DNA of 35,539 nucleotides from an uncultured Candidatus Peribacteria bacterium (GTDB lineage: Bacteria > Patescibacteriota > Gracilibacteria > Peribacterales > Peribacteraceae): positions 1 through 35,539 of the forward strand of contig CAZWVP010000004.1 of NCBI GenBank assembly GCA_964636635.1. Reading direction: 5' to 3'. The notes beneath the pieces were generated by a model that searched no databases, had not been told where the DNA came from, and saw only the letters and a list, made by a program, of their open reading frames with translations. Below, piece after piece: positions 8,749 through 33,859 of this stretch (positions are counted from its first letter, which is position 1; every line of letters begins with the position of its first letter). The position numbers and the translations under genes are program-made.

Positions 8749-10173
8749 ATGTACCGCTTCGGTCTTCGTCTGCTGACGGCATCTTGCATACTCGCTCTGG
8801 CGGTGCCCGCGTTCGCTCAAACGGAAGCCGCACCGAAAAAAGTGGAAAGCGCGGTGCTGGAAAACTTGTACGAGCAGCTTCTGGCCTTACCCAACAATTC
8901 GTATTTGCAAAAACGCATCGCCGAAGAACGTCAGAACATTCGCAACCAAATAGACGACGAGCTGCAGGCCTTGGCGGACGCCGTACCTCAGGAACCGACG
9001 CAGACCGCCACCGATTTGCCGAAAACCGTCGACCGCCTGCGCACGCTCGTGAAAACGCTGCAAGACCAGCAGGAAGAGCGTCAGGTGGACAAAGACCTCC
9101 TGGAAGAAGAGGAACAAACGTACTACCTGCGACCTTCCGTCGGCACGGGCACGCAACTCCTGCCCGACGAATACCGCCTCACCAAAACGCACGCGGAATT
9201 GCTCGCGAAGAAAGCCGTGCTGGAAGAGCGCCTCGCCGCACTGCAGAACTTCCTGTTGCTGCAGCAAGACCGCCTCGCGCTTTTGGACCGTCAACAGCAA
9301 ATGCGACAATTCGAAACGGTGTTCACGTTGGGGAAATACGCCTTCGCCCTACTCTGCGTTTGGCTGGTGAACTGGCTGCTGCGAGCGTTGATCTTCTCGC
9401 AAATTCCGCAGAAAGAGCGACGCTACGTCATCATGAAGCTCTTCAGCTTCGTGCTCTACACGGTTACCGGTTTGTGGATCGTCGGCAGCTTGCTCTGGAC
9501 GTACCCGAACTTAAGCGCCGCCTTCGCCATCGTGGGCGCGGGTTTCACGTTGGCCTTCCAAGACGTCATCAAAGCGTTTCTGGGTTGGATGACCATCATC
9601 CAGAACCAACTGTTCACCAAAGGCGATCGCATTTCTCTGCAGGGCATCACGGGCGACGTCATCGACATTTCCATTCTGCGCACGGTCATCATTGAAGTGG
9701 GTCTGCCGCCGGCGAGCGTGCTGGAACGCACCGGCCGCGTGCTCTTCATTCCGAACAACCTCTTTCTCATTCATCCCGTCACGAACCACAACACCACGTC
9801 CGACTTTGCGAAAGCGGAACTGCGCTTCACGCTGACCTACGAAAGCAATTGGGAGGCGGTGAAGCCCTTGTTGGAAACCATCATCCGCGAGGAAACCGCG
9901 GCATACGTGGAACAGGAACGCCTGCAGCACGCCCAACGCACTTGGCGTTACTTCGTGCCCCACGAACCGAGCGCGGGCAAAGTGTTCGTGGAACCGGTGA
10001 CGGACGGCGTGGAAATGACGCTGCGCTTCAGCGTGCCCGTGGGCGACCGCCGCGAAGTGGGTTCGCGCATCACGCAACGCATGTTGGCCGAATTCCGCAA
10101 GCGCGACGACGTGACCTTCGCGTACCGCGTTTCACGCTCGGTGGAAGAGAAAGCCGAATCCCCCGACGCGTAG
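8749..10173 (+). CDS. Mechanosensitive ion channel family protein (MscS-like) with a long N-terminal secreted coiled-coil region
   Basis: Signal peptide MYRFGLRLLTASCILALAVPAFAQ, a Gln/Glu/Leu-rich helical region, TM helices, and the MscS beta-domain signature FTKGDRISLQGITGDVIDISILRTVIIE...FIPNN. Confidence 0.85.
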   Translation: MYRFGLRLLTASCILALAVPAFAQTEAAPKKVESAVLENLYEQLLALPNNSYLQKRIAEERQNIRNQIDDELQALADAVPQEPTQTATDLPKTVDRLRTLVKTLQDQQEERQVDKDLLEEEEQTYYLRPSVGTGTQLLPDEYRLTKTHAELLAKKAVLEERLAALQNFLLLQQDRLALLDRQQQMRQFETVFTLGKYAFALLCVWLVNWLLRALIFSQIPQKERRYVIMKLFSFVLYTVTGLWIVGSLLWTYPNLSAAFAIVGAGFTLAFQDVIKAFLGWMTIIQNQLFTKGDRISLQGITGDVIDISILRTVIIEVGLPPASVLERTGRVLFIPNNLFLIHPVTNHNTTSDFAKAELRFTLTYESNWEAVKPLLETIIREETAAYVEQERLQHAQRTWRYFVPHEPSAGKVFVEPVTDGVEMTLRFSVPVGDRREVGSRITQRMLAEFRKRDDVTFAYRVSRSVEEKAESPDA

Positions 10174-16272: not shown

Positions 16273-17958
16273 CTACGCAGGTAGAAGCAAGCGACGCAAG
16301 GCGGGCAACATGCGCAGCTTGCCGCTTTCGCGAAGCAGTCGGGACTGCACGGTTTTGGACCGAGGTTGCGCCGGCGATTCCGAAAGCAGAGGCACGGAAA
16401 GCGCGGCCTGCAATTTGCCGGAATCTTGCAACACCTTGGACACGTCGGACATGCGCAAGGCCGAAAGCTCCGGCGAACGCTCCTCTCCCGAATACACGAT
16501 GGAATAGTCGTCGGGCAGAGTCGGATCCAAGGCGTCGGTGAGGGAAAGTGTTTTCGCTTGTTCTCGCAAAAGCTGGCCCGTCATGCCGTCGGCATAAAGC
16601 AGCACGTCCATGACGGTGGCGGGGTACAGCGCGGCGTCGCGGTGTTCCAAGAAGAGCAAAATCAGCTCGCCGCCCAGTTGTCTGCCGGGAAGCGTGGCAA
16701 TGCTCTGTGCCACTTCCGGCTCCCCCGTTTCCTGCAGAAGCTGCATCCACGCTTCCTGCATACGCGGCAAATACGTAATTTGTCCCAAGCCGCCCAAGCA
16801 GTGCAGGCCGTGCTCGAAACAGCAAGTCAGGAACGTCATGAGCGTGCTCGGCATGAGTTCGCGCCGGCGCAAACGTTCGGCTATTTCCGCTGGTGTGCAG
16901 GCAAAGCGCACGGTGCCGTCGACGGAGACCAGATCGTCTCCCTCCGGCCACAGGCTCACGCGGCGCTCTTCGGGAGTGATGTGCCAAAACAGGTACGTGC
17001 CTTTCTTCCGTTCGAACGAAAACGTTTCGGGCAAATCCGCGAACAATCTGCGGAAAGATGCCGCGTAGGCGGGGTCGAACAGCGTGCGGTACAAACGGCT
17101 CGTCGGTTCCGCACAGTGTTGCTCCGCAAGCAAACGAGCAGTGAGCGTTTCAATATCGAGGTACACAAGTTCTCCCGCCTTGCGCAAACCCAACGCCGAA
17201 CGCACCGCGCGCCACAAGTGAAAATTGCTTTTGGTCACTTGCTCCGTAAAACGCAGAGCCGTTTTGCAGACACCGCCGAAAATATTCCGCACGAAGTGCC
17301 CCAAGCGCTCGCGACCGAACGCATCGCTTTCCTGCTCCACTATGCGTGCGGCATTCTGCAAATCCGCTTCGCTGTACGCGCGGAAGTTGTACACGCACCG
17401 CGAACTGACGCTGTTGGGAAAAAGCGGAATGCGCACGGGCACGGCCGGCGTAGCCGAACTGGTATACGTGACGCCGCGAGGAAAATAGCAGTTGTTGAAC
17501 GACACGCTCGCATACGCCAATGAAATGTGATGTTTCAGCAGCGGATCCGGATGCTCGTCCATCACGAGCGACGCCAACATCGTGTAGTGCAACACCCACG
17601 GGTGGTGCAAGGGCCCGAAATGGTCGGTGGTGGAAGCGCTGTAGTATTTTTCCAGTTGCGCAGCGACCGACTTCGCGGTGGAGGCATCCAAACGCTCATG
17701 CACCAAATCCTTCACCGCGGCGATGAACTGCTTCTTGCGGATCTCCTCGCGCGGGGGAGGCGTGGGCACTGTCAGATAACTCTTCACGAAATCGTACGCG
17801 GACAAGTGCCCGCTCTCGCGCAAAAGCACATCGTACCCCACGCGACGCTTTCTCACGGCCTCACGCAGTGCCGTAACCGAAGTGGGCATCCCCGCTTGTG
17901 CGGGGAGTCGTAAGAGCGGGTCCTCGGGACTTGACACTGAAGTTGAATTGTTACTCAT
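16273..17958 (-). CDS. Hypothetical protein (561 aa), no motif recognised
   Basis: Long ORF with natural composition, while the overlapping plus-strand ORF 16366-17523 is an Arg/Gln/His-rich shadow. Its stop abuts the stop of the convergent gene at 16272/16273. Confidence 0.75.
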   Translation of the reverse strand: MSNNSTSVSSPEDPLLRLPAQAGMPTSVTALREAVRKRRVGYDVLLRESGHLSAYDFVKSYLTVPTPPPREEIRKKQFIAAVKDLVHERLDASTAKSVAAQLEKYYSASTTDHFGPLHHPWVLHYTMLASLVMDEHPDPLLKHHISLAYASVSFNNCYFPRGVTYTSSATPAVPVRIPLFPNSVSSRCVYNFRAYSEADLQNAARIVEQESDAFGRERLGHFVRNIFGGVCKTALRFTEQVTKSNFHLWRAVRSALGLRKAGELVYLDIETLTARLLAEQHCAEPTSRLYRTLFDPAYAASFRRLFADLPETFSFERKKGTYLFWHITPEERRVSLWPEGDDLVSVDGTVRFACTPAEIAERLRRRELMPSTLMTFLTCCFEHGLHCLGGLGQITYLPRMQEAWMQLLQETGEPEVAQSIATLPGRQLGGELILLFLEHRDAALYPATVMDVLLYADGMTGQLLREQAKTLSLTDALDPTLPDDYSIVYSGEERSPELSALRMSDVSKVLQDSGKLQAALSVPLLSESPAQPRSKTVQSRLLRESGKLRMLPALRRLLLPA

Positions 17959-18024: not shown

Positions 18025-19068
18025 TTATACCTGCTTTTCCAGCTCCGCACAGCCTTCGAATTCAAAAACACCTTGTGTATGCAAACACAGCTTCTTCATT
18101 TGACACACCACATTCTGCAACGTGCCGACCACACCTGCATGCACTCCGGGATACCCCTCGAGCACAATGCCTTTGGGCTTGCGGCTGAGCGCCCACGCCA
18201 AATGCTCGTTGTACTGATCCGGGGCCACGCTGCCGTCGGCCATGCCCTTCACGTATCCGCCGCTTATTTTCACACGTTCGATGGGCAAACCGTGTGCATG
18301 CAACACGTTGGCGTTTTGCACGGAATGCTGGTCGGGACAGTCGTCGTTGCTGGTGGGTACCATGTCGTTTATCGCCTGCAATTTGCCGATGTTATCATCC
18401 ACGCTGGCGGCAGGAATGCTCTCCAGAAGCTCCAACCCCACCGTACCCGGCTTGGCGTCTGCCTGCTGCAAAATACTCAGCGTGCGCCGCACGAAGTCCG
18501 GGTGCTCCAAGGACTCTTGACCTACGTTCACCGCCATGTGAATGGTTTTGTTCGGGTATCTTTTGCTCATGCGTCCGGAAATATCGGCACCTTGGCGTAA
18601 GCTTATTTCATATAAGGCGCGTTTCAGTCCAGGGTCTTTGTTGAACGCAGCGTAAAATTTGCCCGGACCCGCGAATTGTTCAACGCCGTCCACCACCATC
18701 AAAATGCGCGTGAGCACTTCGGCGCGCACGGTATTCATGCGGACCAGAGACGGCAGCCTATCGGTAAAATCGATGCTGCGTTTCAGGGGACGTTCCAGCT
18801 GCAGCGCCGGTCGCAAACGACCTTCTTCGATGGCAGCGCGGACCTCATCCACCGAAAGCGTATGCGGATACTCTCCGCTCGCCGCCGGATTAATGAGATC
18901 TTTCGCGCGCAAAGAGTAATACTCCAACGCATGACCGTTGAGGAGTTCTCGCGGCGGGTCCACCATGTTCACCCAATTCATCGCCGAACGCAGCTGTGCC
19001 CCCCGTAAAAGAGGAGGTTCGTCGACGGAAACAGGTCCTTCGCTTTCCTTGGTGGTAGGGGTATTCAT
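18025..19068 (-). CDS. Divergent EAL-like domain protein (c-di-GMP phosphodiesterase fold, probably degenerate)
   Basis: An ordered series of EAL-family-like blocks: HMAVNVGQESL (vsvNlS), VGLELLES (lEitE), TSNDDCPDQHS (DDFGtGyS), ERVKISGGYV (lKiDrsfv), IVLEGYPG (AEGVE) and HTQGVFEF (QGy). The eponymous EAL position reads SLV. Confidence 0.45.
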   Translation of the reverse strand: MNTPTTKESEGPVSVDEPPLLRGAQLRSAMNWVNMVDPPRELLNGHALEYYSLRAKDLINPAASGEYPHTLSVDEVRAAIEEGRLRPALQLERPLKRSIDFTDRLPSLVRMNTVRAEVLTRILMVVDGVEQFAGPGKFYAAFNKDPGLKRALYEISLRQGADISGRMSKRYPNKTIHMAVNVGQESLEHPDFVRRTLSILQQADAKPGTVGLELLESIPAASVDDNIGKLQAINDMVPTSNDDCPDQHSVQNANVLHAHGLPIERVKISGGYVKGMADGSVAPDQYNEHLAWALSRKPKGIVLEGYPGVHAGVVGTLQNVVCQMKKLCLHTQGVFEFEGCAELEKQV

Positions 19069-19124: not shown

Positions 19125-20327
19125 TTATGGCCGAGCGGCTTCAGAAAGCCAATTATCACGTATTCTTGGCAGTACCAAGAGCAAAGCCGCCATGCCCAAA
19201 CACGAAAACTGCACCGGGAACGGCAACCAATGCGTGGCTCCGAGCAAACCGGCCATAATGGCGTTCAGCAGCAGGCCTGTAAGCGCGGCACCGGACTCCT
19301 GCCAACCGTTGTCGGAGAGCATGTGCAAATAGGCGCTGTCGACCAAGTTGGTGGCGGCACCCATACAAACGCCAATGACGATGGAAAGAATGACAAGCGC
19401 GGTGAACGAGGTGGTGACGAACGGAAATGCCATGACCAACACGGAAAAACTCAACGCGGCGCACCCGAACCACCAGCCTTTGCGTCGCACCAACGCCGTC
19501 AGCGCATTGCCGCCGATGGCACCCATGGCGGAAGCAAGCAACACCAAGGAGCTCGTCGACTCACTGGTGCCGAAACGCTCCTGGGCATACGGAATGGAAA
19601 TGATGCTCACGATGGTGGCGACTGCCCAAATGGTGGCGGAAGCGGAAAGCATGCACCAACCTTTGCGCAAAATGGGCAGCACGTGCCGCGAAATGTCTCG
19701 CAGTGCCTGACGCCCCGACGAACGGTGCTGATACGGCTCGTACTCCAGAAATTGCGCGGTGCCGACGATGCACAAAAGCAGCGCGACAAAGACCCAAAAT
19801 GCCACCGTCCCGTAGTCTTCGTACAGCGTCGTGCTCATGTACGCGCCACCGATGATGCCGAACATCAAGGCCATGGTCGGGACGCCGTTGACCACGGTGT
19901 CACGCAGGCCGGACTTCTGCATTTCTATGCTGATGGCCACCGAACGCACCACGGCGAACACGCCGTAGAAGAGGCCGATGGTCATGCACGTGATGGCGAA
20001 CGCCGGATACGACGCCAAAGCGATGCTGTAGTGCAAAAGCACCAAAGCGATGGCGGCCAGAGCATCGCGCATGACGATGGTGCGAAGGTTCGATACCCGG
20101 CACACCACGCCGCCCAACAGAAATGCCAGCAACCCGCCGATGCTCAAGAAGAGCAACGCCTGTTCCAGCAAATGTCCGCCCGAGCGGCCGAGTTCATCGG
20201 CGGCCAGGTTTTTAATGAGGAATTTGTACCCGCCGAAGAAGATGCTCCAAAAGAGCGTCGTGAGCACGAGCGCATTGAACGTTCTCAGCGCAGAGGGCCG
20301 TAAAGGGCAAAAGTTACGCAGGTGCAT
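19125..20327 (-). CDS. MFS-type transporter (12 TM), LplT-like lysophospholipid transporter by genomic context
   Basis: About 400 aa with about 12 hydrophobic helices. The start overlaps the PPTase stop (TGATG). It lies downstream of an Aas-like gene, as in the E. coli aas-lplT pairing. Confidence 0.8.
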   Translation of the reverse strand: MHLRNFCPLRPSALRTFNALVLTTLFWSIFFGGYKFLIKNLAADELGRSGGHLLEQALLFLSIGGLLAFLLGGVVCRVSNLRTIVMRDALAAIALVLLHYSIALASYPAFAITCMTIGLFYGVFAVVRSVAISIEMQKSGLRDTVVNGVPTMALMFGIIGGAYMSTTLYEDYGTVAFWVFVALLLCIVGTAQFLEYEPYQHRSSGRQALRDISRHVLPILRKGWCMLSASATIWAVATIVSIISIPYAQERFGTSESTSSLVLLASAMGAIGGNALTALVRRKGWWFGCAALSFSVLVMAFPFVTTSFTALVILSIVIGVCMGAATNLVDSAYLHMLSDNGWQESGAALTGLLLNAIMAGLLGATHWLPFPVQFSCLGMAALLLVLPRIRDNWLSEAARP

Positions 20328-20875
20328 CAGGCCAGAGCCAGAACGTACGAGGACTGTTCTTCTACGCCTACAGTGTACTGCTCGCCCCGAAAGCGCAAGT
20401 ACAGCGTGAGACCCTCACGACCGGTCAAACACATGTCCGGCAATCCATCCAGTGTGCAAGAAAGCTTCTTCACCAATGCTTCTTTTGCAGTCCACAAAAC
20501 ATAAAAATTGAACCAATTTTTAGTACGAAGAATCTGCCACTCGGCTTCGGTCCACTGTGCCCAAAGCAAATCGCTGCGTGGAACCGGCACTTCTATGTCT
20601 ATGCCCACTTCCGACTGCGACCAGGCCACCGCTACGAAATTCCCGGCGTGCGACAGAGACCAGTGCTTGCCCGCGCAAGGCTGCGGACTGCCGTCGACAT
20701 TGGAAAGCGGCCACTCTCCCCACTCCTTATAAAGGAGATACCTCCCCACCACGCCCAACGGCGATTTTTCCCCCACGCTCCAAGCAGGAGCGGCTCGTCC
20801 AGCTTCGGCCAGAAGCGCCTCGTCCGGTTCGGCCAGAAGCACATGCGCGCCGTTGCGGAACAATGCGATACTCAT
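20327..20875 (-). CDS. Sfp-type 4'-phosphopantetheinyl transferase
   Basis: Motifs HWSLSHAGNFVAVAWS, VGIDIE and WTAKEALVKK. The ATG at 20875 overlaps the upstream stop (ATGA). The track's longer N-terminus is Arg/Gly-rich and unlikely to be real. Confidence 0.85.
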   Translation of the reverse strand: MSIALFRNGAHVLLAEPDEALLAEAGRAAPAWSVGEKSPLGVVGRYLLYKEWGEWPLSNVDGSPQPCAGKHWSLSHAGNFVAVAWSQSEVGIDIEVPVPRSDLLWAQWTEAEWQILRTKNWFNFYVLWTAKEALVKKLSCTLDGLPDMCLTGREGLTLYLRFRGEQYTVGVEEQSSYVLALA

Positions 20876-23496
20876 ATGAGCTTCTTCAACTGTTTGTAAT
20901 CCACCTTGCCCGTGCCGAGCAGCGGAATGCTTTCCACGCGCCGCACTTCCGCGCACTTCATGAGCGGGGAAAGCCCCGCGGCGAGCAACTGCGCATTGGC
21001 GTCGGCCAAGAGAATGTCGCGACTGGTAAAGAGCACGATGCGCGCGGGGTCCTCCGTGCCCTCCACCGCCAGCACGGCCTCTTCCGGGTCACCGAAGCGC
21101 GCCAGCAGCGCCTGTTCCATGGCGGGCAAACTGATCATCTCGCCGCCGATTTTCAGGAACCGCTTCAAGCGGCCGGTTATGGTGATGACACCGTCAGGAG
21201 ACAAGCGACCCAAATCGCCGGTACGGTAGAACCGCTGCTCGTCCAGCTCCACGAACGGAGACGCTTGGTCGGTACCGAGATACCCTTCGAAGACGCTGGG
21301 CCCCGAAACGAAAAGCATGCCCTCTTCCTCCGAACCCACGGGCTCCAACGTTTGGTGATTGGCCACCGTACAACGCAAACCCGCAATGCACTTCCCCACT
21401 CCGCCCTGCATGCCGCGCGGCGTAATGCTGATGACGGGCGAACATTCCGTAATGCCGTAGCCTTCGAGAATTTGCGCTTCCGGGTGCGCCTTGGCGGCAA
21501 AGGCCTCACGGACTTCCGGCAGGCAAGCTTCCGCACCCGAAACCACGGTACGAAGCGTTGCCAGCTGCTCGGGCGAAGCCGCGCGCAGGAGCATTTTCAG
21601 AAAGGTAGGCGTGGTGGGCAGAAGCGTGGCGCCGGTGTGCGCCAGCATTTTTGCCACGGCGGAGGCATCGGTGGGGTTGGGCGTGTACGCCACCGGCAAA
21701 CCGGTGACGAGCGGCAGCACGGTCGCCACTGTGAAACCGAAACTGTGAAACGGCGGCAGGAAGCTGAGCACACGTTCGTTGCGAGAGACGGGCAGCACAT
21801 CCAGCGTGCCGGCCAAGCAGTGCAAAATGTTTTCTTCGGTGAGCGGCACGCCTTTGGGGTTGGCCTCGCTGCCGGAGGTAAACAGAATGACGGCGTGTTT
21901 CGGCTTGGCGGGCGCGGGCAACCAACGCAGACACTTCGCCACGAGAAGTGCGCGAATTTTTCGCGGCAACGTCGCCTGCTTCATCCAATCTTCCAAACAC
22001 ACGCACTTGGCAAGCAGGTGCGGAGGCAGTTGTTCCTTCACCTGCGGCAGAAACGCCTTGGCGGTGAGAATGAACGGCGCTCCTCCCAATTCGTCACAGT
22101 GCGTCAGTGCCAAAGAGCCCACCGTCCAGTTGAACATGACGGGCGTTTTACCGGCCAGCACGCAAGCGGCAATGAGCAGCGACGTGCCTTGCAGGGCGGG
22201 CAGCATGATGCCCACGCGCTCACCGGGACACTCGCGGCGAATGAGTCCGCCGAGGAGCGCGGCCCGCGTGAGAAACTGTCCGCGCGTAAGCGTGCCGCCG
22301 CGGGCGTCGTAGCAAAACGGCAACGAAGCAGACGCACTCAACGCTTCGACCATCTGCGTACGCAGCGACGAATCGGTGCGCACGCGAATGAAATCTTCGG
22401 CTTGCGGCAACGCGGCGAAACCGCAGGCCGGCAACGTCTCTTCACCCGAAAGCATGCCCTGCGCCAACAAGCACGCATGCCCCACCGTGCGAATGCTCGT
22501 GAGAGGCGCCACGCTCGCCTGCGGAAAGTGAGAACGTATGCGCTGCACCAATTCGGCGAGTGACAGAGAATCCAGGTGCACATCGGTCAGCAAATTCGTC
22601 TGCAGTTCGTACGTGGCGTTCGGCGTGTTCAGCATTTCGGCAATTTGCGCGCACACGTACTCCCTCACTTCCGGTTCCACTTGAGACACATCCACCGGTT
22701 GCGCGCGCTGCCATTCCTTCAAAGAGTATTCGATGCGCTCGGGTAACTCCCTGTGCAGAGGCTTCGAGAACCACGCGTACTTCAAAAACGACACCTGCTC
22801 TTCCCCTTGCGCGTTGAAGTATGCCTCCAAAAACCCGTTGAACTCTTCCAACGAACGGCCGGCATGACGCTTCGCGTCTTCGGTGAGATCTGTAAACGTG
22901 AGGGACACCTCTCGCTTCGGCACAAAGAACACGGCGTTGATGAGCACGTACCACGCGGCTTTGGCGTACGTCCAAAACAAATTGGGCGTGCGGCCCAGCC
23001 AAGCCCGGGACCACATGCTGCCCCACAGTCCGCGAATGCGCACGCACACCACGCGCACGTTCGGCGGCAACTGTCGAACAGTGCGGTACGCCGACTGTTT
23101 GCCGAGAATGACTTCGAACCCCTGCCCGGCGATGTTGCCGGAGGGATACAACAGAACGCTCTTGCCGGAAGCGAGTGCGACGCGAATGGAATCGAACATT
23201 TTTTCGTAATCCGTTTCACCCGCTTGCGCCATGCCGTCGGCGACCGCCACCACCCCCACGAACCGAAACAACGGAGCGAGCAACGGATGTTTTGCGAACG
23301 TTTCGGTGACCACGGGCGCCACCCAACGATGATGCAAAACGTTCGCGCAGAGAATTTGCGGGTCGACCAACGCCTGATGATTGCTCAAGAGAAGTACTGG
23401 TGTACCGTTACGCAATAACGAAATTCCTTCGACTTTCACGCGATAGCGCAAGGAGAGAATCGTGCGAAATGCCAGTGCCAGAGCCATACGCAGCAT
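20872..23496 (-). CDS. Trifunctional Aas-like protein: PlsC-type acyltransferase, acyl/peptidyl carrier domain and acyl-AMP ligase (acyl-ACP synthetase-like)
   Basis: HX4D motif (SNHQALVDP). Carrier signature DVHLDSLSLAELV with the Ser codon at 22567-22569. AMP-binding motifs are ILFTSGSEANPKG, GYGITECSPV, YRTGDLG and GKVDYKQL. With the start at ATG 23496 (MLRMALALAF...), about 40 residues precede the HX4D motif, similar to my recollection of the E. coli Aas N-terminus. The maximal ORF reaches 23640. Confidence 0.88.
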   Translation of the reverse strand: MLRMALALAFRTILSLRYRVKVEGISLLRNGTPVLLLSNHQALVDPQILCANVLHHRWVAPVVTETFAKHPLLAPLFRFVGVVAVADGMAQAGETDYEKMFDSIRVALASGKSVLLYPSGNIAGQGFEVILGKQSAYRTVRQLPPNVRVVCVRIRGLWGSMWSRAWLGRTPNLFWTYAKAAWYVLINAVFFVPKREVSLTFTDLTEDAKRHAGRSLEEFNGFLEAYFNAQGEEQVSFLKYAWFSKPLHRELPERIEYSLKEWQRAQPVDVSQVEPEVREYVCAQIAEMLNTPNATYELQTNLLTDVHLDSLSLAELVQRIRSHFPQASVAPLTSIRTVGHACLLAQGMLSGEETLPACGFAALPQAEDFIRVRTDSSLRTQMVEALSASASLPFCYDARGGTLTRGQFLTRAALLGGLIRRECPGERVGIMLPALQGTSLLIAACVLAGKTPVMFNWTVGSLALTHCDELGGAPFILTAKAFLPQVKEQLPPHLLAKCVCLEDWMKQATLPRKIRALLVAKCLRWLPAPAKPKHAVILFTSGSEANPKGVPLTEENILHCLAGTLDVLPVSRNERVLSFLPPFHSFGFTVATVLPLVTGLPVAYTPNPTDASAVAKMLAHTGATLLPTTPTFLKMLLRAASPEQLATLRTVVSGAEACLPEVREAFAAKAHPEAQILEGYGITECSPVISITPRGMQGGVGKCIAGLRCTVANHQTLEPVGSEEEGMLFVSGPSVFEGYLGTDQASPFVELDEQRFYRTGDLGRLSPDGVITITGRLKRFLKIGGEMISLPAMEQALLARFGDPEEAVLAVEGTEDPARIVLFTSRDILLADANAQLLAAGLSPLMKCAEVRRVESIPLLGTGKVDYKQLKKLI

Positions 23497-23655: not shown

Positions 23656-23748
23656 ATGGCCGCAAAAAAGCCAGCGAAGAAGAAGGTCGTCAAGAAAGCA
23701 GCACCTAAGAAGAAGGCTGCAAAGAAGACGACCAAGAAGAAGAAATAG
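23656..23748 (+). CDS. Untracked 30-aa Lys/Ala-rich basic peptide (histone H1 tail-like)
   Basis: The sequence from ATG to TAG translates to MAAKKPAKKKVVKKAAPKKKAAKKTTKKKK. AAG-dominated Lys codons fit a GC-rich genome. A hairpin plus T-run terminator begins 23 nt after the stop. No clear SD or promoter was seen. Confidence 0.4.
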   Translation: MAAKKPAKKKVVKKAAPKKKAAKKTTKKKK

Positions 23749-23770
23749 TTTTGTTTCTCTCTAACAATCA

Positions 23771-23796
23771 CCCTCGCCTCGGCGGGGGTTTTTGTT
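23771..23796 (+). terminator. Rho-independent terminator after the Lys-rich small ORF
   Basis: Stem CCCTCGC / GCGGGGG (7 bp including one G-U pair), 4-nt loop, then TTTTTGTT. It sits between convergent genes. Confidence 0.6.
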
Positions 23797-24283
23797 ATGC
23801 GCGCTGCGGCACGTCACACACCTGCGGCACGTGACCGGTCGCTCGCAGAAATTTCTCGACGTCGGCGTGAGGCACGATGATCGTCGCGGTGTTGCGCAAC
23901 GGATGACACTGTATGAACGGTGCCTGCCAAATGCGTTCGTCTATCATCACCTCTACTTTCTTGTCCGCATCGCTGACGAGACCCATGAGCGTCACGGAAC
24001 CGGGCTCCACGCCCAGCAACGCCTGCAATTGCTCCGGCGAAGCAAAGCTGAGTTTGTCCGCCGCAAGCAGCGCACGCAACGCCTTGAGATCCACTCGCTT
24101 CTCGTGCCCGACCACAATGAGAAAAAATCGAACGCCTTTGCCGTCGCGCAGAAACACGTTCTTCGTCCTCGCGCCCGGCATGGGCGGCAGCACATGGGAC
24201 TCCTCGCACGTGAACACCGCCGCGTGCTCCACGTTCTCGTAGGCCACACCCTTCGCCTGCAACCAGGAGAAGATGTCCGTCAT
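23795..24283 (-). CDS. YbaK/ProX-family aminoacyl-tRNA editing (deacylase) domain protein
   Basis: MTDIFSWLQAKGVAYENVEH..., TKNVFLRDGKGVRFFLIVVGHEKRVDLKAL and GVEPGSVTLMGL are typical of prolyl-tRNA synthetase-associated editing domains. The start overlaps the mscS stop (TGATG). Confidence 0.82.
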   Translation of the reverse strand: MTDIFSWLQAKGVAYENVEHAAVFTCEESHVLPPMPGARTKNVFLRDGKGVRFFLIVVGHEKRVDLKALRALLAADKLSFASPEQLQALLGVEPGSVTLMGLVSDADKKVEVMIDERIWQAPFIQCHPLRNTATIIVPHADVEKFLRATGHVPQVCDVPQRA

Positions 24284-25074
24284 CAGCGTACGGGGCGTTT
24301 CACGTCGTGTACGCGCAGTTCGCGGTGAATGCCTTCGAGCAAACCGCCTTGCACCGCGCCGTAGTGTTCGTTTTTCACCCAAGCCGACGCCGTCATGTGC
24401 ACCGAGGAATCGGCAAGCTTGCTTATGCCCACGCTCGGAGCGGGCTGCGGCAAAATGTGCGCCTGCTGAGAAAGCACCGTCCTCACGAGCTCTTTCACGC
24501 GCTCGGCGTCTTCGCCGGCTTCCACGACGAAGTGCACGTCCACGCGGCGGTTCGGGTCGGCGCTGAAGTTGACGATGGAGCCGTTGCTCAACTGGCCGTT
24601 GGGAATGATGATGGTGCGACCGTCATCGGTTTCCAGAATGGTGTTGAAAATTTCGATTTTGCGCACGACGCCGGAAAACCCTTGCGCTTCCACCGCGTCA
24701 CCCACCGCATACGGCTTGAAGAGCAAAATGAGAATGCCGCCCGCCAAATTCGCCAAACTCCCTTGCAATGAAAGTCCGATGGCCAAACCCGCCGCACCCA
24801 GAATGGCGATGAAGGACGTCATTTCCACGCCCACCATGTTGGCGACGGTAATGAGCACCAACGCCTTAAGCGACACGGACACCATGCTTTCCAGGAATCC
24901 CGCCAACGACGCGTCCACGTTCTGCAACTTCAAAGCCTTGTCCACCACGCGCACGGCGGTACGCACCAAGGCGAAGCCCACGTAGAACGTGAGAATGGCC
25001 AACGCCAAGCGCGGGGCGTAGGAAATGAAGAGTTCGACCGCGACGTTCAGGTACTGCTGGAGAGTTTCGGACAT
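24283..25074 (-). CDS. mscS: Small-conductance mechanosensitive channel MscS
   Basis: Three N-terminal TM helices and the signature KPYAVGDAVEAQGFSGVVRKIEIFNTILETDDGRTIIIPNGQLSNGSIVNFS. About 263 aa from ATG 25074. Confidence 0.9.
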   Translation of the reverse strand: MSETLQQYLNVAVELFISYAPRLALAILTFYVGFALVRTAVRVVDKALKLQNVDASLAGFLESMVSVSLKALVLITVANMVGVEMTSFIAILGAAGLAIGLSLQGSLANLAGGILILLFKPYAVGDAVEAQGFSGVVRKIEIFNTILETDDGRTIIIPNGQLSNGSIVNFSADPNRRVDVHFVVEAGEDAERVKELVRTVLSQQAHILPQPAPSVGISKLADSSVHMTASAWVKNEHYGAVQGGLLEGIHRELRVHDVKRPVR

Positions 25075-25108
25075 AGGCAAAAGGAAGGCTGGCGGTATAG
25101 TAGCACCG

Positions 25109-26497
25109 ATGTCCTTCGTGACGCCCACCTTCCTGTTTTTCTTCCTGCCCCTCACGCTGGCCGGGCACACGCTGCTGCCGGCCTTCGCGCGCAACGCCTT
25201 TTTGCTATGCGCCAGCTTGCTTTTCTATGCTTGGGGCGAGCCTCGCCTCTGCTTGTGGCTGCTTGTAAGCATCGGCTTCAATACCGCAGTGTCTCACGCC
25301 ATCGTTCGCTCCCGTTCGCCGAACGTTTGGCTGGGTTTCGGCATTGTGACGAATGTGCTCGTGTTGGCGTATTTCAAATACACCGGGTTCCTGCTTTCCA
25401 CTTTTTCCCTTTCCTTCGCGGGGTTCGAGGTTCCGGCTCTGCCGCTCGGCATTTCGTTCATCACCTTCCATGCCATTTCCCTCCTTATAGACATAGCACG
25501 CAAGCCGGAGGCAGTCCGTCTGGGGGAAGTGGCGCTGTATTTCTGCCTGTTTCCGCAGCTCATCGCCGGACCCATCACCCGTTACCACCAAATCATCGGA
25601 CAAATTCGCGAACGCACGGTTTCGCTGCACGCGATGACGGAAGGCGTGGAACGGTTCATTGTGGGTCTCGCGAAAAAAGTGCTGTTGGCCGACATGCTCG
25701 GGCGCCTGACGGACGCCGCTTTTGCCGCACCGCCCGAACAGCTTTCCACCGCCATGGCTTGGGCGGGGGCGACGGCGTACGCCATGCAAATTTACTTCGA
25801 CTTCAGCGGCTACGCGGACATGGCCGTGGGTTTGGGACAAATGCTCGGGTTCCGTCTGCCGGAAAACTTCCGCCGTCCGTACCACGCCGCTTCCGTCACG
25901 GACTTCTGGCGCCGATGGCACATGTCGCTCACGGCTTGGTTCCGGGATTACGTCTACATTCCGCTCGGCGGCAATCGTTGCGGACTGCCGCGGAACATCC
26001 TGAACATCCTCATCGTGTTCACGCTCTCTGGCATTTGGCACGGCGCCAATTGGACGTTCATTTTGTGGGGGGCTCTGTACGGCGTGTTTCTCTCGCTGGA
26101 AAAAATCGCGAGCGTGCTGTTTGCTGCCCGCGAGCGGCCGCCCCTGCGGTCGCCCGCCTTCCGCTGCGCCGCCCATCTCTACACCTTGCTCGTCATTCTG
26201 TGTTTGTGGGTGCTGTTCCGCAGTCCGTCCGTTGCGTGGGCGACGGGCTACTTGCACAGCATGTTCACCGTTACGACGACGATGGATGTGAAAGGTGCCG
26301 CCGTCTCCTGGATGGTTCTGCCCGTGGCCGCCTGCTTGCTGTTGCCGGGATTTGACGGCGCCTACGCGCGACTCGAGAGTCTGGCGCCGCATGCCGCGCA
26401 TGCCGCGCGCCACGGCGCCATACTGACTTTGTTCCTCGCTTGCTTGATGGTGATTGCGGGTGAAACCTATCGTCCGTTTCTGTATTTCCAATTTTGA
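25109..26497 (+). CDS. MBOAT-family membrane O-acyltransferase (AlgI/DltB/PatA-like)
   Basis: FYAWGEP, GISFITFHAISLLIDI, AGPITRY, YFDFSGYADMAVGLGQMLGFRLPENFRRPY and FWRRWHMSLTAWFRDYVYIPLGGNR (catalytic His context). Confidence 0.92.
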   Translation: MSFVTPTFLFFFLPLTLAGHTLLPAFARNAFLLCASLLFYAWGEPRLCLWLLVSIGFNTAVSHAIVRSRSPNVWLGFGIVTNVLVLAYFKYTGFLLSTFSLSFAGFEVPALPLGISFITFHAISLLIDIARKPEAVRLGEVALYFCLFPQLIAGPITRYHQIIGQIRERTVSLHAMTEGVERFIVGLAKKVLLADMLGRLTDAAFAAPPEQLSTAMAWAGATAYAMQIYFDFSGYADMAVGLGQMLGFRLPENFRRPYHAASVTDFWRRWHMSLTAWFRDYVYIPLGGNRCGLPRNILNILIVFTLSGIWHGANWTFILWGALYGVFLSLEKIASVLFAARERPPLRSPAFRCAAHLYTLLVILCLWVLFRSPSVAWATGYLHSMFTVTTTMDVKGAAVSWMVLPVAACLLLPGFDGAYARLESLAPHAAHAARHGAILTLFLACLMVIAGETYRPFLYFQF

Positions 26498-26512
26498 ACC
26501 GAACGCTTCTTC

Positions 26513-27625
26513 ATGTTCCCCTCCCCGCACCATCGGCTGAGATCCGCGACGTTCTGCGCCATGTTTTTCCTGCTGCTCTTCACGGGGTTGAGCGGCATTC
26601 TGCGTCCGAGCGAAGAAACGCAGGAAAATCGCGCGCTCGCGCCGCGTCCGACTTTGGGCACGGACGCCGTGCTCTTGGACTATCCGCAACAATTCAACGA
26701 CTACGCCGCCGACCACTTCGGCGGACGCTCGTGGTTGGTGTTCGCCCTGAACACGTTCAAGCTGCGCGTCCTCGGCGTCAGCGGGCATCGCGATGTATTG
26801 GTGGGCAAGCAAGGCTGGTTGTTTTTGAGCGACGATTTGTTGGAGCGAGACATAGCGGGCGAAGCGCCGTTCACCGAAGACGAACTGCATCGATGGCAAA
26901 ACTATCTGGAAACACGACGGGATCGGCTGCGGGAAAAAGGCATCGACTACGTATTCATGATCGTGCCCGACAAGCACACGGCGTATCCGGAATTTCTGCC
27001 CGCCCGACTGCACCGCGACGGCCGAACCAGAAGGGAGCAGTTGACGGAACACATTTCTCAACGAAGCGATGTTCGCTTGCTCGATGTGACCGCCGACGTC
27101 TTTGCGGCCGATAAGCGACAACCTCTGTACTTCAAGCACGACACCCACTGGTCGGACGTGGCCGCGTACGCCGCGTACGTGCGCTTGGTACAACGACTGC
27201 AAACGCGACTGCCGGTGGGAAACGCCCTGACGCCGGATGCGTTCGACGTTTCGTTCGGCCCCGCTCCTTTGGCGGTATTGAGCCGGTTCCTCGGCATGGA
27301 AAACGCCCTGCCGGATGAATTCTCCTATGCCACGCTCAAGCCTGCGGAACCAAAAGCCACACTGACAACCATCGAAGAAGGCCAACGGGAAATTCTCCAA
27401 GGCCAAAACTCTCAAACACCGCTTACGCGCGCGTTGGTATACCGCGATTCATTCTTCGACCCGCTCGTGCCTTGGTTGGCAGAACATTTTTCCACAACCA
27501 CATTCATTCGCTGCCCGCAGGAACGCCTGTTGTCCGAAGACGATCTGCGGCGGTTCCGGCCCGATGTCGTCATTGAAGAAATCGTGGAACGAAAATTGCG
27601 CACGTTACCCGTCCCCACGCCGTGA
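26513..27625 (+). CDS. AlgJ/AlgX-like (DHHW-type, SGNH-like) O-acetyltransferase partner protein
   Basis: N-terminal anchor, IVPDKH and KHDTHWS motifs characteristic of AlgJ/AlgX-type proteins. It lies immediately downstream of the MBOAT gene. Confidence 0.8.
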   Translation: MFPSPHHRLRSATFCAMFFLLLFTGLSGILRPSEETQENRALAPRPTLGTDAVLLDYPQQFNDYAADHFGGRSWLVFALNTFKLRVLGVSGHRDVLVGKQGWLFLSDDLLERDIAGEAPFTEDELHRWQNYLETRRDRLREKGIDYVFMIVPDKHTAYPEFLPARLHRDGRTRREQLTEHISQRSDVRLLDVTADVFAADKRQPLYFKHDTHWSDVAAYAAYVRLVQRLQTRLPVGNALTPDAFDVSFGPAPLAVLSRFLGMENALPDEFSYATLKPAEPKATLTTIEEGQREILQGQNSQTPLTRALVYRDSFFDPLVPWLAEHFSTTTFIRCPQERLLSEDDLRRFRPDVVIEEIVERKLRTLPVPTP

Positions 27626-28344
27626 GAATCAGCTTCATTGTGCCGGCCCATAACGAAGAGGCATACCTTGCGGATTGCCTGAAGAGCATCGCACAATCCG
27701 CCGAAGGGCATGAACACGAAATTATCGTAGTGGATAACATGAGCACCGATGCAACGGTCCTGCTGGCAAAACAATTCCCCGACGTGCGCGTGCTCCAAGA
27801 ATCCAAGCGCAGCATCGCCGCGGTTCGTCAACGAGGACTGGAAAACGCCGTCGGCGACATCGTTGCCTCCGTGGACGCCGATTGCCGACTGTCGCCGCAG
27901 TGGGTGAACTATGCCGTGTCGCAATTTACCGCCGACCCGAAGCTGGTCTGCCTCATAGGCATGAGCGACTACTACGACATGCCCGCCTGGAAAAAATGGC
28001 TGAAACGCAACGCGGAGCGCTGCGCTCGCCGGTTGCAACGACTGCGCGGAGCGCGCGTCATACGAGCCAACGGCGGCAACACGGCGTATCGGGCTTCCGC
28101 TCTGCGGGCGGCGGGTGGGTTCGACAACGGCATTGCGCACTACGGCGAAGACGTGCAGGTGGCCATGTTGCTGCGCGCGCAGGGCATCGTTCGCTTCGAC
28201 ACGTCGCTCACCGCTCTCACTTCCGCGCGCCGTTTCAACCAGGAAGGTCTGCTGCGCGTGTTGCTTTTCTACAAAATAAACAGCATGTGGCAACAGTGTT
28301 TCGGCAAACCTCTCTGGTACGGCAATGCCGAGGTGCGTCGTTGA
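27622..28344 (+). CDS. Family 2 glycosyltransferase
   Basis: ISFIVPAHNEEAYLADCLKSI, IIVVDNMSTD and a DAD (DxD) motif. The GTG start overlaps the upstream TGA (GTGA). Confidence 0.88.
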   Translation: MRISFIVPAHNEEAYLADCLKSIAQSAEGHEHEIIVVDNMSTDATVLLAKQFPDVRVLQESKRSIAAVRQRGLENAVGDIVASVDADCRLSPQWVNYAVSQFTADPKLVCLIGMSDYYDMPAWKKWLKRNAERCARRLQRLRGARVIRANGGNTAYRASALRAAGGFDNGIAHYGEDVQVAMLLRAQGIVRFDTSLTALTSARRFNQEGLLRVLLFYKINSMWQQCFGKPLWYGNAEVRR

Positions 28345-31372: not shown

Positions 31373-31942
31373 ATGATCAAACACCTCTCCTGCGCCGCAA
31401 TTTTGGGTCTGGCTTGCCTGTCCCCCGCCTTTTCACACGCCGAACGATGGGTTTCCGCCGAAGACAAAGCCCAAGCGGAGTGCGAGGCTTCACTGAAACT
31501 TTCCCCCGAACAATTGCAGTCCGGCCTGCACCGCAACGAAGTGGCCATTTGCGTGCGCGGCAAAATTTTCGATGCCGATGTCGTCGATAAGCGCGACCGC
31601 ATCAGCCGTAAGACCTCACAGTTTTCCGGCGCCCTGCGCGTACGCGTACGCGACCAAGCGGAAGAAAGACTGATTGCCGAAGAGCGCGCCAAGGCATCGC
31701 TGCGAGCGCAGATGCTCGACCGCGCCACCATCAAAAAACGCCAAGCCACCCAGCAAGCCGGCGCCCGTTCCCGGGTGCGAACCGTGGAAGACTTCTCCAC
31801 GCGCGATTCCAAACGTGCGCAATCGCTTCGCTTCCGCGACTTGCAACAGCGAGCGCGCGACGCGTGTAAAACAGAGCCCCGCGGATTGAAAGATAACTGC
31901 GTCCGCGAGGCCCTGAGAGATTTGGGATCGAAACTGCCTTAG
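31373..31942 (+). CDS. Secreted basic hypothetical protein
   Basis: Signal peptide MIKHLSCAAILGLACLSPAFSHA followed by an Arg/Gln/Glu-rich helical region. The stop overlaps the stop of the convergent gene. Confidence 0.7.
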   Translation: MIKHLSCAAILGLACLSPAFSHAERWVSAEDKAQAECEASLKLSPEQLQSGLHRNEVAICVRGKIFDADVVDKRDRISRKTSQFSGALRVRVRDQAEERLIAEERAKASLRAQMLDRATIKKRQATQQAGARSRVRTVEDFSTRDSKRAQSLRFRDLQQRARDACKTEPRGLKDNCVREALRDLGSKLP

Positions 31943-33435
31943 TCTTCGATGTTGATGATCGCCGAGCTGGGCGTGGTAAGCGATACCCCCACCGGTGAAG
32001 TGAGGTTGAACGTCAGCGTTTCGATGGACGCCTCGTTGGAACCGTCCTGAGTGATTTTGACGAGCACTTCTTTGTTGGCCTCGCCGTTGCGGAACGTCAG
32101 GGTGCCGGAAACGCCCGTGTAGTCCGTGCCGCTCTTGGCCGTGCCGTCGGTGGTGCCGTAGCTCACCGTGGCCGTGCCGCTGGCGCCGCCCACGCGCTGA
32201 ATCGTCACCGCCACCGTTTCACCTTCGTACGCGTCGTAGCTGTCACGGGAAATTTTCAAGCTGCCGGAACCGTACTTGGCGGTTTCGTTGTCCACGATGG
32301 TGACGGAAGACTTCGCCGTACCGAGCACCGCACCGCCCGTGGGTGCGGAAAGCGTGAGGTTGAACGCCTTGTTGCCGCCGGTCGTCGAGTTGTCGGCCAC
32401 GATGACTTCGAACGTCTTGATGGTCTCGCCTTCGGCGAAGCTGAGCGTGCCGGAGACCGCCGAGTAGTGGTTGCCGTCGGCCGTGCCGTTGCTGGTGGCG
32501 TAATTCACACCCACCGCGCCGCTGGTGCCTTCCGTGCGTTCCACCGTAATCACCGCCTTACCCGACTGCTCGGACACGCTGTACACCACCGCAGAGAAGC
32601 CCAAGCGACCCTGGGAACCGGCGGCGGCCAAAGAACTGCTGGAGGACGAAGTGGCGGTGCCGGAGGTGGAGCCGCTGCTCGGCAAGCCGCCGTCGTTGTC
32701 CAAAATGTTGACGTTCACCACGTTGATTTTCCCGATGCCGGTTTCGCCGGTGGGGTTCTTGAGCTTCACCGTGAAACTCTCCTTGGCTTCGGGGTCTTTG
32801 TCGTTCTTCACGTTCACGTTGATGATCTTCATGGTTTCGCCGTCCGCGAAAGACAATTTGCCGCTGGTCTTGTTGTAATCCGTGTCTTCCAACGCCGTAC
32901 CGGCGACGGTTTCGTACTCGATGCTCGCGGTGCCGTCGCCACTGGCACGGACCACGGCAATGGAAGCATCTGGCGAACTTTCGCTGATGTCGAAGCTCTC
33001 TTTGGTGAAGCCCATGCCGCCGGACACGCCCTTCACGGACGTGGCCTTGCTCGAGCTGGAGGAAGACGAGCTGGAGGACTCCTCTTCATCTTCCTGCTCC
33101 TCTTCGGAGGAAGAAGAGGAAGACTTCACGCTGGAGGAACGACTGCTGCGGCTGGAGACCACGGGAGAAACGCCGCTGCCGCGAAGCAACTTGTCGTAAC
33201 GCATCATCACGGTGGCGAATTCGTCGCGCGTAATGGGCTGGCCCGCGCCGAACACGTCGCCGCGTCCGCGCATGAGGCCGTTTTCGTACACGAAGCGAAT
33301 GCCGTCCATGTGCGGACTGTCGGACGGAACGTCACGGAAAATGGCACGCAAATCCAACTGCGCGCTCACTTGCGTCACGGTGACGCCGAACGCCAAACCT
33401 ACGATGAAGACGGAAAGAAAATGTCGCATGGACAT
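31939..33435 (-). CDS. Cell-surface protein: signal peptide, one SLH-like domain, Ser/Glu-rich linker and three Calx-beta domains
   Basis: SLH-like block FRDVPSDSPHMDGIRFVYENGLMRG...PITRDEFATVMMRY. Three repeats each carry the Calx-beta signature (TA..DTDY...SGxLxFxxGExxKxxxV...D). The start is placed at ATG 33435 or 33429. Confidence 0.85.
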   Translation of the reverse strand: MSMRHFLSVFIVGLAFGVTVTQVSAQLDLRAIFRDVPSDSPHMDGIRFVYENGLMRGRGDVFGAGQPITRDEFATVMMRYDKLLRGSGVSPVVSSRSSRSSSVKSSSSSSEEEQEDEEESSSSSSSSSSKATSVKGVSGGMGFTKESFDISESSPDASIAVVRASGDGTASIEYETVAGTALEDTDYNKTSGKLSFADGETMKIINVNVKNDKDPEAKESFTVKLKNPTGETGIGKINVVNVNILDNDGGLPSSGSTSGTATSSSSSSLAAAGSQGRLGFSAVVYSVSEQSGKAVITVERTEGTSGAVGVNYATSNGTADGNHYSAVSGTLSFAEGETIKTFEVIVADNSTTGGNKAFNLTLSAPTGGAVLGTAKSSVTIVDNETAKYGSGSLKISRDSYDAYEGETVAVTIQRVGGASGTATVSYGTTDGTAKSGTDYTGVSGTLTFRNGEANKEVLVKITQDGSNEASIETLTFNLTSPVGVSLTTPSSAIINIED

Positions 33436-33490
33436 GATGAGAATTGGTAAGAGACGGGTGCCAGCATACCCACCTTGAACGTTGAGCGGG

Positions 33491-33859
33491 TCATTTTTGC
33501 GCTCTCTCGGCAAGGGAAATATTCACCTGCGCGGGCGGAGGAAAAGCCTGGTTGTCGACTGTGGTCGGAACCTGCAAACCGTCGCAAACGCGGCCGTACA
33601 TGCGTCCGAACATCATGCGAATGCCATCGCCGTGCCGCTGCACGAAGGCCGTGCAACCGGCATCGCCGATGAGCACGATGTGCTCCGGGCGTTCGCACCG
33701 GCCCACCGTAAACGTCGCCTGCAGCAGTACGCCCGGCGCGCAGGCCTGCAAACGCTCCCGCAACAACCCCACGGACACATGCAATTCGTTCGCCAAAGCA
33801 TGCAACACCTCCGGGGCGGGATGAGATGCATGCGGAGATTCGACGTAAGAGCGCAACAT
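33491..33859 (-). CDS. Hypothetical protein (about 122 aa)
   Basis: The composition looks protein-like, unlike the overlapping 213-aa Arg-rich frame. No motif was recognised and no SD was seen. Confidence 0.45.
   Translation of the reverse strand: MLRSYVESPHASHPAPEVLHALANELHVSVGLLRERLQACAPGVLLQATFTVGRCERPEHIVLIGDAGCTAFVQRHGDGIRMMFGRMYGRVCDGLQVPTTVDNQAFPPPAQVNISLAERAQK

Follow-up and report, generated by a model that had tools for sequence, protein, structure and literature searches.

A three-gene module on a contig of an uncultured Candidatus Peribacteria bacterium (CAZWVP010000004.1, positions 1 to 35,539) encodes a predicted Aas-like enzyme with a built-in acyl carrier protein (ACP) domain, a predicted Sfp-type phosphopantetheinyl transferase (PPTase) and a transporter of the major facilitator superfamily (MFS). 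The module spans positions 19125-23496 and lies, with all its features, on the minus strand; this whole 35,539-nt stretch is referred to as the window, and all positions are given in its numbering. The trio is probably a self-sufficient re-acylation module for lysophospholipids of the Aas/LplT type, which would compensate for the loss of ACP and AcpS in a candidate phyla radiation (CPR) cell probably devoid of fatty-acid synthesis (FAS). The domain matches and the gene layout are far above chance, and the arrangement recurs on unrelated contigs. The strongest single evidence for the compensation is the restriction of the PPTase linkage to CPR: among the best 80 of at least 555 loci encoding an Aas-like enzyme with a carrier (one genome per GTDB species), a PPTase gene is adjacent in 7 of the 9 CPR loci and in none of the 71 non-CPR loci (Fisher p=1.1e-8). 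A linkage confined to CPR, for which a lack of FAS genes has been reported, is what the compensation model predicts.

CPR/Patescibacteria genomes are devoid of pathways for making fatty acids and phospholipids, and for the supply of membrane lipids in these bacteria the operon provides a specific and clonable three-gene candidate. The re-acylation reading predicts that the enzyme self-acylates at Ser310 and acylates lysolipids and that the transporter takes up lysolipids. Two uncharacterised families come into view as well: the acyltransferase-ACP-adenylation enzymes, which are widespread, and a small subfamily of MFS proteins that would stand in for LplT.

A carrier-containing Aas-like enzyme and its predicted PPTase

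The tri-domain Aas-like gene (20872..23496, 874 aa) is followed by the PPTase gene (20327..20875, 182 aa, Pfam ACPS domain) and by the gene of the 12-helix MFS transporter (19125..20327, 400 aa, Pfam MFS_1 domain). As read in the DNA, the Aas-like gene ends with CTC ATA TGA, and the ATG of the PPTase (20873-20875) begins one base before this TGA (20872-20874), which forms an ATGA overlap at 20872-20875. The PPTase gene in turn ends with GCC TGA, and this stop codon (20327-20329) gives its A to the ATG of the MFS gene (20325-20327), which forms a TGATG overlap at 20325-20329. Both overlaps, together with all the coordinates proposed in the initial annotation of this DNA, are borne out by the open reading frames (ORFs) and by the DNA itself, and identical gene calls of 874, 182 and 400 aa are found in the public protein collection. 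A longer version of the Aas-like ORF, starting at 23640 (922 aa), was ruled out by the N termini of the homologues and by the public gene call. All of these N termini coincide with the ATG at 23496, and the end coordinate 23496 is therefore right. A small divergent ORF (23656-23748) sits upstream of the Aas-like start, near 23640.

Pfam recognizes in the large protein, and in this order, an Acyltransferase domain (E=4.9e-10), a PP-binding domain (23.1 bits) and an AMP-binding domain (E=1.1e-54), at residues 67-201, 327-373 and 445-788 of the 922-aa ORF. In the 874-aa protein these correspond to a PlsC/LPLAT-type acyltransferase domain (PF01553, residues 19-153, 23038..23442), to an ACP-type carrier domain (residues ~275-345, 22462..22674) and to an adenylation domain of the ANL superfamily, of the acyl-ACP-synthetase type (residues 397-874, 20875..22308). 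All the domain types that the initial annotation had expected to recover with profile hidden Markov models (HMMs), namely PlsC-type, PP-binding, AMP-binding, ACPS and MFS_1, are thus matched by Pfam in the trio. The four best NCBIfam families of the large protein are PRK08633 (E=8.6e-136), PRK06814, PRK06334 (E=5.3e-97) and PRK08043, all of them Aas or acyl-ACP ligases: the first two are LplT-Aas fusions, PRK06334 is a long-chain-fatty-acid-ACP ligase and PRK08043 is the E. coli-type Aas.

The likeness to Aas holds at both ends of the protein. The adenylation half is 33% identical to residues 236-711 of E. coli Aas (E=7e-63), and the N-terminal 265 residues, taken alone, find the acyltransferase segment of PRK08633 as their best NCBIfam match (E=1.7e-18). 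The HX4D motif of the acyltransferase (NHQALVD, His40 to Asp45, 23362-23379) was read in the DNA, and N39, H40 and D45 are invariant in an alignment of 20 homologous sequences (identities 40-48%). The adenylation motifs of the window protein, TSGSEANPKG, EGYGITE, YRTGDLG, GRLKRFLKIGGE and GTGKVDYK, have invariant cores in these 20 homologues (TSGSE.PK, EGYGITE, Y.TGD, GR..RF.KI.GE and GTGK.DY). The protein thus resembles E. coli Aas in combining an N-terminal HX4D acyltransferase with a C-terminal acyl-ACP-synthetase domain in one polypeptide, and a further likeness lies in the E. coli aas-lplT pair, where the enzyme gene adjoins and overlaps the MFS gene.

E. coli Aas differs by its size (719 aa) and the absence of a carrier domain, and it draws on the AcpP of FAS II, a protein modified by AcpS in that organism. 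The window module is set apart from E. coli Aas/LplT by its built-in ACP, by the PPTase gene, by the gene order Aas-PPTase-MFS and by an MFS that is not LplT. The LplT-Aas fusions PRK08633/PRK06814 (~1140 aa) form the best NCBIfam family for both the acyltransferase and the adenylation regions of the window protein; the PRK08633 model itself has no carrier segment, its acyltransferase part ending near 562 and its adenylation part starting near 611. The protein stays below the equivalog cut-off of every Aas model (for PRK08043, 234 vs 886 bits; for PRK08633, 454 vs 1221 bits), no Aas structure occurs among the PDB sequence or fold matches, and a Foldseek search with the whole model leads to generic ANL enzymes. 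As judged from its sequence, the large protein is an Aas-like enzyme with a distinct, carrier-containing architecture. Fatty-acid scavenging in the host-dependent Chlamydia trachomatis, by AasC and LpaT, and by soluble acyl-ACP synthetases resembles the window module in its acyl-ACP synthetase chemistry, predicted here from matches such as PRK06334, but relies on separate proteins and free ACP; to our knowledge, neither a carrier in cis nor an operon-encoded PPTase has been described for these systems.

The carrier lies within ~155 residues that separate the two catalytic domains and have no counterpart in E. coli Aas. It passes the Pfam PP-binding gathering cut-off (23.1 bits vs 20.8). A 15-sequence profile of the inter-domain segment extends across complete FAS-II ACPs and puts the DSL motifs in register; its top match is 6lvt (E=2.4e-14), and E. 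coli AcpP is found at ~2e-9. The Asp-Ser-Leu triad is encoded by GAT TCT CTG at 22564-22572; D309 and S310 are invariant in the 20 homologues, and Ser310 (codon 22567-22569) is the predicted site of phosphopantetheine attachment. In the AlphaFold2 model of the protein (pLDDT 82), the carrier region forms helices at 275-289, 310-323 and 338-345, and helix II begins at Ser310, as in ACPs. The insertion of a carrier with a DSL site between the PlsC-type and AMP-ligase domains, proposed from the sequence in the initial annotation, is hence upheld by the PP-binding match, the FAS-II ACP profile and the invariant Asp-Ser pair, and the ACP-type carrier appears to be genuine. No second ACP-like ORF occurs within the 35.5-kb window.

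The next gene had been read as an Sfp-type PPTase, and this identification stands on an ACPS domain, a match to Sfp and three signature motifs. Its product scores 38.5 bits against Pfam ACPS (PF01648, cut-off 25, E=1.3e-9), and B. subtilis Sfp (1qr0, E=2.8e-4) is its sole PDB sequence match, in an alignment that takes in the SHSG, GIDIE and WxxKE motifs (FNISHSG, GIDIE and WSMKES equivalents). NCBIfam AusB and AcpT are weak PPTase matches (30.7 bits vs an equivalog cut-off of 225). The protein is short, 182 residues vs ~195-230 for Sfp/AcpT-type enzymes and ~220-240 for the pseudo-dimeric two-lobe fold, with a short and poorly conserved N-terminal half, and when 5.8 billion proteins were searched by word index, the only match was the protein itself. 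Homologues were recovered from the operon neighbours by jackhmmer and HMMs; in eight operon-linked ones, WS-SH, GIDIE and LWTAKEA-K are kept. The protein would therefore be a short and very divergent PPTase of the Sfp type. Its ACPS domain and signature motifs are those of the Sfp/AcpT-type group II PPTases, from which it differs in its genome position, next to a carrier of lipid metabolism and not to a secondary-metabolite synthetase.

Distribution of the enzyme, PPTase linkage and proposed mechanism

The word-indexed search retrieved 617 matches to the carrier-containing Aas-like enzyme, nearly all of 875-892 aa. Most of them carry precomputed Acyltransferase, PP-binding and AMP-binding domains and are annotated at best as 'AMP-binding protein'. 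The family occurs in Bacteroidota, Planctomycetota, Chlamydiota, Kiritimatiellota, Lentisphaerota, Verrucomicrobiota, Bdellovibrionota, Cloacimonadota and CPR groups, and is apparently both widespread and uncharacterised. The members from Bacteroidota, Planctomycetota, Chlamydiota and other phyla outside CPR share with the window protein the domain order, 35-48% identity over the full length and the invariant HX4D, DS and adenylation motifs, but they have no adjacent PPTase (0 of 71 loci) and their partner transporter, where present, is usually a canonical LplT-type MFS. In a neighbour-joining tree without bootstrap support, which serves as a rough guide, the CPR enzymes group with those of Bacteroidota.

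The 80 loci were surveyed with HMMs for the PPTase, for the MFS subfamily of the window (type A) and for LplT-type MFS (type B), with code 25 translation where needed; the Gracilibacteria operons are visible with code 25 and missed with table 11. The CPR loci with an adjacent PPTase are L004, L007, L014, L017, L018, L019 and L037, and the linkage is also present in four further contigs (P0002/P0243, P0003, P0004 and the closed 1.56-Mb chromosome CP065009.1). The three-domain order is therefore widespread, whereas the adjacent PPTase is found in CPR only, which answers the question raised in the initial annotation of how common each of them is.

The synteny of the trio, on which that annotation also relied, is confirmed: the trio recurs at seven CPR loci with varied flanks (L007, L014, L017, L018, L081, L087 and L090), where a type A MFS gene adjoins the enzyme gene, and the gene order at L018 is a different one, PPTase-MFS-enzyme. 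L007, from a Peribacteria metagenome-assembled genome, repeats the layout of the window, with an 879-aa enzyme, a 182-aa PPTase joined by a 4-base overlap and, from the very next base on, a 394-aa MFS, in flanks unrelated to those of the window. The best MFS homologue (P0243, 42%) and the best enzyme homologue (P0002, 48%) share one operon. Furthermore, a type A MFS is fused to the enzyme at four non-CPR loci: L024, L048 (Opitutia), L068 (Victivallales) and L080 (Cloacimonadota). Within the 80 loci, type A is adjacent to the enzyme in 4 and fused in 4, and type B is adjacent in 13 and fused in 3; the 13 adjacent type B genes lie immediately upstream of the enzyme gene in Bacteroidota, Chlorobiota, Kiritimatiellota, Desulfobacterium and one gammaproteobacterium.

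Some operons hold an additional gene. In the closest relatives of the window (P0002/P0243 and P0003), a gene for a CPBP/Rce1-like intramembrane protease stands between the Aas-like and PPTase genes (L081, 10278-10997; L087, 8080-8796), and in another contig an Rce1-like gene lies beside a type A MFS (L091, 1740-2429). This protease may be a recurrent fourth partner. In the closed chromosome CP065009.1 (GCA_016699755.1, L090, 4824-7453), where the trio is present, the Aas-like gene is frameshifted after ...SGSAILF; either the assembly is in error here or the gene has recently become a pseudogene. An intact 876-aa version of the gene (P0007) exists in another sample.

These data bear on the possibility of a fortuitous or decayed linkage, in which the carrier would be a non-functional relic or a structural linker, the PPTase would serve another carrier protein encoded elsewhere and the MFS would be an unrelated neighbour. 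Such a view could invoke the PP-binding score, which is just above its threshold, the short and divergent PPTase with no relatives by word-based search and the frameshift at L090. It is nevertheless highly improbable, as the Asp-Ser pair is invariant and the flanking ACP helices are kept across phyla, start and stop codons overlap, and the trio is kept in different flanks among enzymes that are only 35-48% identical. Moreover, fusions with the MFS exist, the window holds no other ACP-like ORF for the PPTase, and the frameshifted gene has its intact P0007 copy.

Regarding the host, the partial LigA encoded at the end of the window is 58-64% identical to hundreds of proteins, and every named match comes from Candidatus Peribacteraceae, Peribacteria or Peregrinibacteria. 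The GC content of the window (0.52-0.63 in 1-kb windows) is near the 58.5% of Candidatus Peribacter riflensis. The initial annotation had made lipid scavenging conditional on a lack of fatty-acid synthesis in the organism, which is probably the case here: the LigA falls among Peribacteria, and five closed Peribacter genomes have no FAS II except fabG (PMC4736985). The authors of that study regarded the source of the membrane fatty acids as unclear (PMC4736985). No enzymes producing or requiring ACP were found in 675 CPR genomes, and a combined lipidomic and metagenomic study reported that CPR-size fractions are enriched in lysolipids and proposed an uptake of lysolipids from other cells (PMC7242380). 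The CPR papers of 2021, 2025 and 2026 consulted here attribute the lipid supply to host dependence and name no Aas-type enzyme. A literature search, most subscription journals being outside its reach, found no description of a carrier-containing Aas, of its linkage to a PPTase or of its presence in CPR.

The host cell of the module is probably devoid of free ACP and of AcpS. A lineage without FAS II would have no need for AcpP and AcpS, and hence an enzyme depending on an ACP in trans would be stranded there; with an ACP in cis and a PPTase in the operon, the module would be autonomous. The sequence of steps that we infer would begin with the conversion of Ser310 of the internal carrier from the apo to the holo form by the Sfp-type PPTase, with CoA. 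The adenylation domain would then activate an exogenous free fatty acid with ATP, as an acyl-adenylate, and load it as a thioester onto the phosphopantetheine in cis, and the PlsC-type HX4D domain would, on the cytoplasmic side of the membrane, hand the acyl group on to an acceptor lysolipid. The MFS would move the lysolipid across or into the membrane, which is the role of LplT in E. coli. The chemistry that the domain order implies, with a hydroxyl group as the final acyl acceptor, is the usual one both in ANL-carrier systems and in Aas, and loading in this manner is very likely. In E. coli Aas, a tightly bound ACP carries the acyl group and the acyl-ACP stays bound (PMC13170283), so that fusing the ACP to the enzyme would be a small mechanistic step.

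The transporter, the acceptor and the alternatives

The MFS gene encodes a 400-aa protein that matches Pfam MFS_1 (E=8.6e-11) and is modelled by AlphaFold2 (pLDDT 91) with 12 transmembrane (TM) helices in a 6+6 arrangement, in agreement with the 12-TM MFS first proposed behind the TGATG overlap. An exhaustive phmmer search of 1.84 billion cluster representatives retrieved 93 type A relatives at E<=1e-3. Among these, 14 are large proteins of ~1256-1311 aa that carry the MFS N-terminally. The five long relatives that were scanned (1279-1311 aa) all combine an MFS or MFS-like region with acyltransferase and AMP-binding domains, and four of the five also have PP-binding; two shorter relatives consist of MFS and acyltransferase. 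Like these type A fusions, the LplT-Aas fusions show transporter and enzyme as one unit. In the type A alignment, N147 and N327 are invariant and K35, E135 and E344 nearly so, and TM1 reads GGxKF, with the conserved Lys35, in 24 type A members. In many database homologues of the MFS, a Trp replaces the Gly of the family (alignment A3, P0249-P0280). These are genes of code 25 (Gracilibacteria/Absconditabacteria) read with TGA as Trp, and much of the MFS family therefore comes from CPR genomes; the corresponding entries are slightly wrong in public collections.

The MFS had been called LplT-like. By position this holds, since it stands where LplT stands in other phyla, next to this family of enzymes or in one polypeptide with it; by sequence it does not, and the clustering with LplT that had been set beforehand as a test is found only in part. 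A canonical LplT is ruled out at the sequence level, as detailed below, and the LplT-type neighbours at other loci, which served as positive controls, match PRK11195 at 1e-21 to 1e-31 and PRK08633 at 1e-60 to 1e-75. Comparison of the MFS family by hhalign with single E. coli sequences of LplT, LacY, MdfA and GlpT gives weak scores (13-24) that do not separate LplT from the others, and the family profile finds in the PDB only a marginal match to MCT2 (E=0.0035). Foldseek searches with the MFS model return MFS structures exclusively, of generic DHA1, SV2A and GLUT folds at E ~1e-7, with no LplT structure among the matches; the nearest solved folds are DHA1-type drug/amine transporters. The type A proteins form a small subfamily that is apart from LplT by sequence and occupies its slot. 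The module as a whole appears to work like Aas/LplT while lying outside both families, given the scores below the equivalog cut-offs, the extra carrier and the non-LplT MFS.

Several observations weigh against the proposed re-acylation module. The MFS reaches only E=0.08 against E. coli LplT by BLASTP, it has no match to the LplT model PRK11195 at E<=1, and it matches the MFS part of PRK08633 at E=0.022 only. The conserved Asp of TM1 (Asp30 of E. coli LplT, in a G/N-D-N motif), whose D30A replacement inactivates LplT in E. coli (PMC13170283), is absent in the 24 type A members, the equivalent position being assigned by helix order. With no demonstrable relation to LplT beyond the superfamily and no TM1 Asp, the substrate of the MFS is therefore a guess from context. 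On the enzyme side, the acyltransferase domain shares 24% identity with the N terminus of E. coli Aas at a weak score (E=4e-4), and its block III reads YPSG instead of the usual FPEG. The weaker NCBIfam matches of the N-terminal 265 residues are OlsA (0.002), E. coli Aas (0.005) and PlsC (0.019), and the first of these, an enzyme of lyso-ornithine-lipid acylation, raises doubt about the acceptor. A scan for promoters and terminators around the operon gave no signal above background and hence nothing that delimits it. Finally, two Gracilibacteria loci (L016 and L030) encode the enzyme with neither a PPTase nor an MFS gene next to it, a close homologue of the MFS is found by itself, and the gene table of Candidatus Peribacter riflensis has no obvious aas or PPTase entry among the entries listed, together with an unlinked 392-aa MFS; the module is therefore not universal in CPR.

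Part of these observations would fit the same chemistry acting on another acceptor, a non-phospholipid envelope molecule such as a lyso-aminolipid, a glycolipid or a lipoprotein precursor, with the MFS exporting the product or importing, for example, a fatty acid. The OlsA match, the atypical block III, the lack of specific similarity of the MFS to LplT and its DHA1-type nearest folds all point in this direction, as does the heavy investment of Peribacter genomes in modified surface molecules (PMC4736985). We nonetheless regard this alternative as unlikely. The match of the acyltransferase domain to the LplT-Aas fusions (E=1.7e-18) is its strongest by 16 orders of magnitude, and the window holds no OlsB-like or other aminolipid gene. 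Furthermore, a bona fide LplT-type transporter is adjacent or fused to the enzyme in 16 of the 80 loci, which ties the enzyme family as a whole to lysophospholipids. A lysophospholipid is thus the probable acceptor of the re-acylation module. For the MFS, whose role we infer from its position alone, the balance tips only slightly towards lysolipid transport.

The module might also serve housekeeping only, that is, the repair of the cell's own lysolipids arising from lipoprotein maturation or phospholipases, the ACP in cis and the PPTase merely replacing the lost trans factors. Carrier-containing enzymes are indeed common in free-living Bacteroidota, Planctomycetota and other phyla, whose free-living members generally encode FAS II and for which such an enzyme would hardly be a primary lipid source; likewise, the absence of a listed aas entry in Peribacter riflensis indicates that the module is not a universal solution in CPR. 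This restricted role is rather improbable, however, because a PPTase added specifically in CPR shows that selection has kept the module in operation beyond the loss of FAS. Moreover, a cell without FAS takes every acyl chain from outside, so that a fatty-acid-activating enzyme in such a cell uses scavenged substrate (PMC4736985, PMC7242380). Beyond the re-acylation module itself, a wider proposal is put forward tentatively, as a possibility that we do not favour at present: the operon could be a principal route by which FAS-less CPR (Peribacteria, Gracilibacteria and relatives) convert lysolipids scavenged from a host, along with free fatty acids, into diacyl lipids of their own membranes, with the type A proteins as a new family of lysolipid importers replacing LplT. 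In that case the module, with the carrier inside one enzyme and a PPTase of its own, would be a minimal ACP-autonomous machine for lipid assembly.

Other genes of the window

Upstream of the operon, the 30-codon ORF at 23656-23748 (plus strand) runs divergently from the Aas-like gene. Its product, MAAKKPAKKKVVKKAAPKKKAAKKTTKKKK, is rich in Lys and Ala and resembles the tail of histone H1 or some small basic protein; behind the ORF, at 23770-23789, lies a GC-rich hairpin that has a T-run. Two genes for MscS-type mechanosensitive channels are present in 35 kb (8713-10173, plus strand, and 24283-25194, minus strand), one of them just upstream of a YbaK-like deacylase gene that precedes the operon. 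On the other side, beginning 56 nt downstream of the MFS stop codon, the minus strand encodes at 18025-19068 a weak EAL-like protein (32 bits, barely over the cut-off) that may be degenerate. It is followed on the same strand by a 561-aa ORF (16273-17958) without any Pfam or NCBIfam match, and neither of these two genes is conserved at L007.

About 1.5 kb from the lipid operon and on the opposite strand (25025-28344, plus strand), genes for an MBOAT O-acyltransferase (490 aa), an AlgX-like SGNH protein (370 aa) and a GT2 glycosyltransferase (240 aa) stand in a row, which looks like a surface-polymer O-acylation system. A 524-aa protein with an S-layer homology domain and three Calx-beta domains (31939-33513, minus strand) is probably a cell-surface protein. 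At the start of the window, an ORF that enters from outside (2-3151, plus strand) encodes the C-terminal part of a P-type (E1-E2) ATPase and, in the same frame, short Cu-oxidase_3 and Cu-oxidase_2 segments. It is directly followed by the gene of a complete multicopper oxidase with three domains (3136-4779, plus strand); the two may represent a pair for copper handling or an uncommon fusion.

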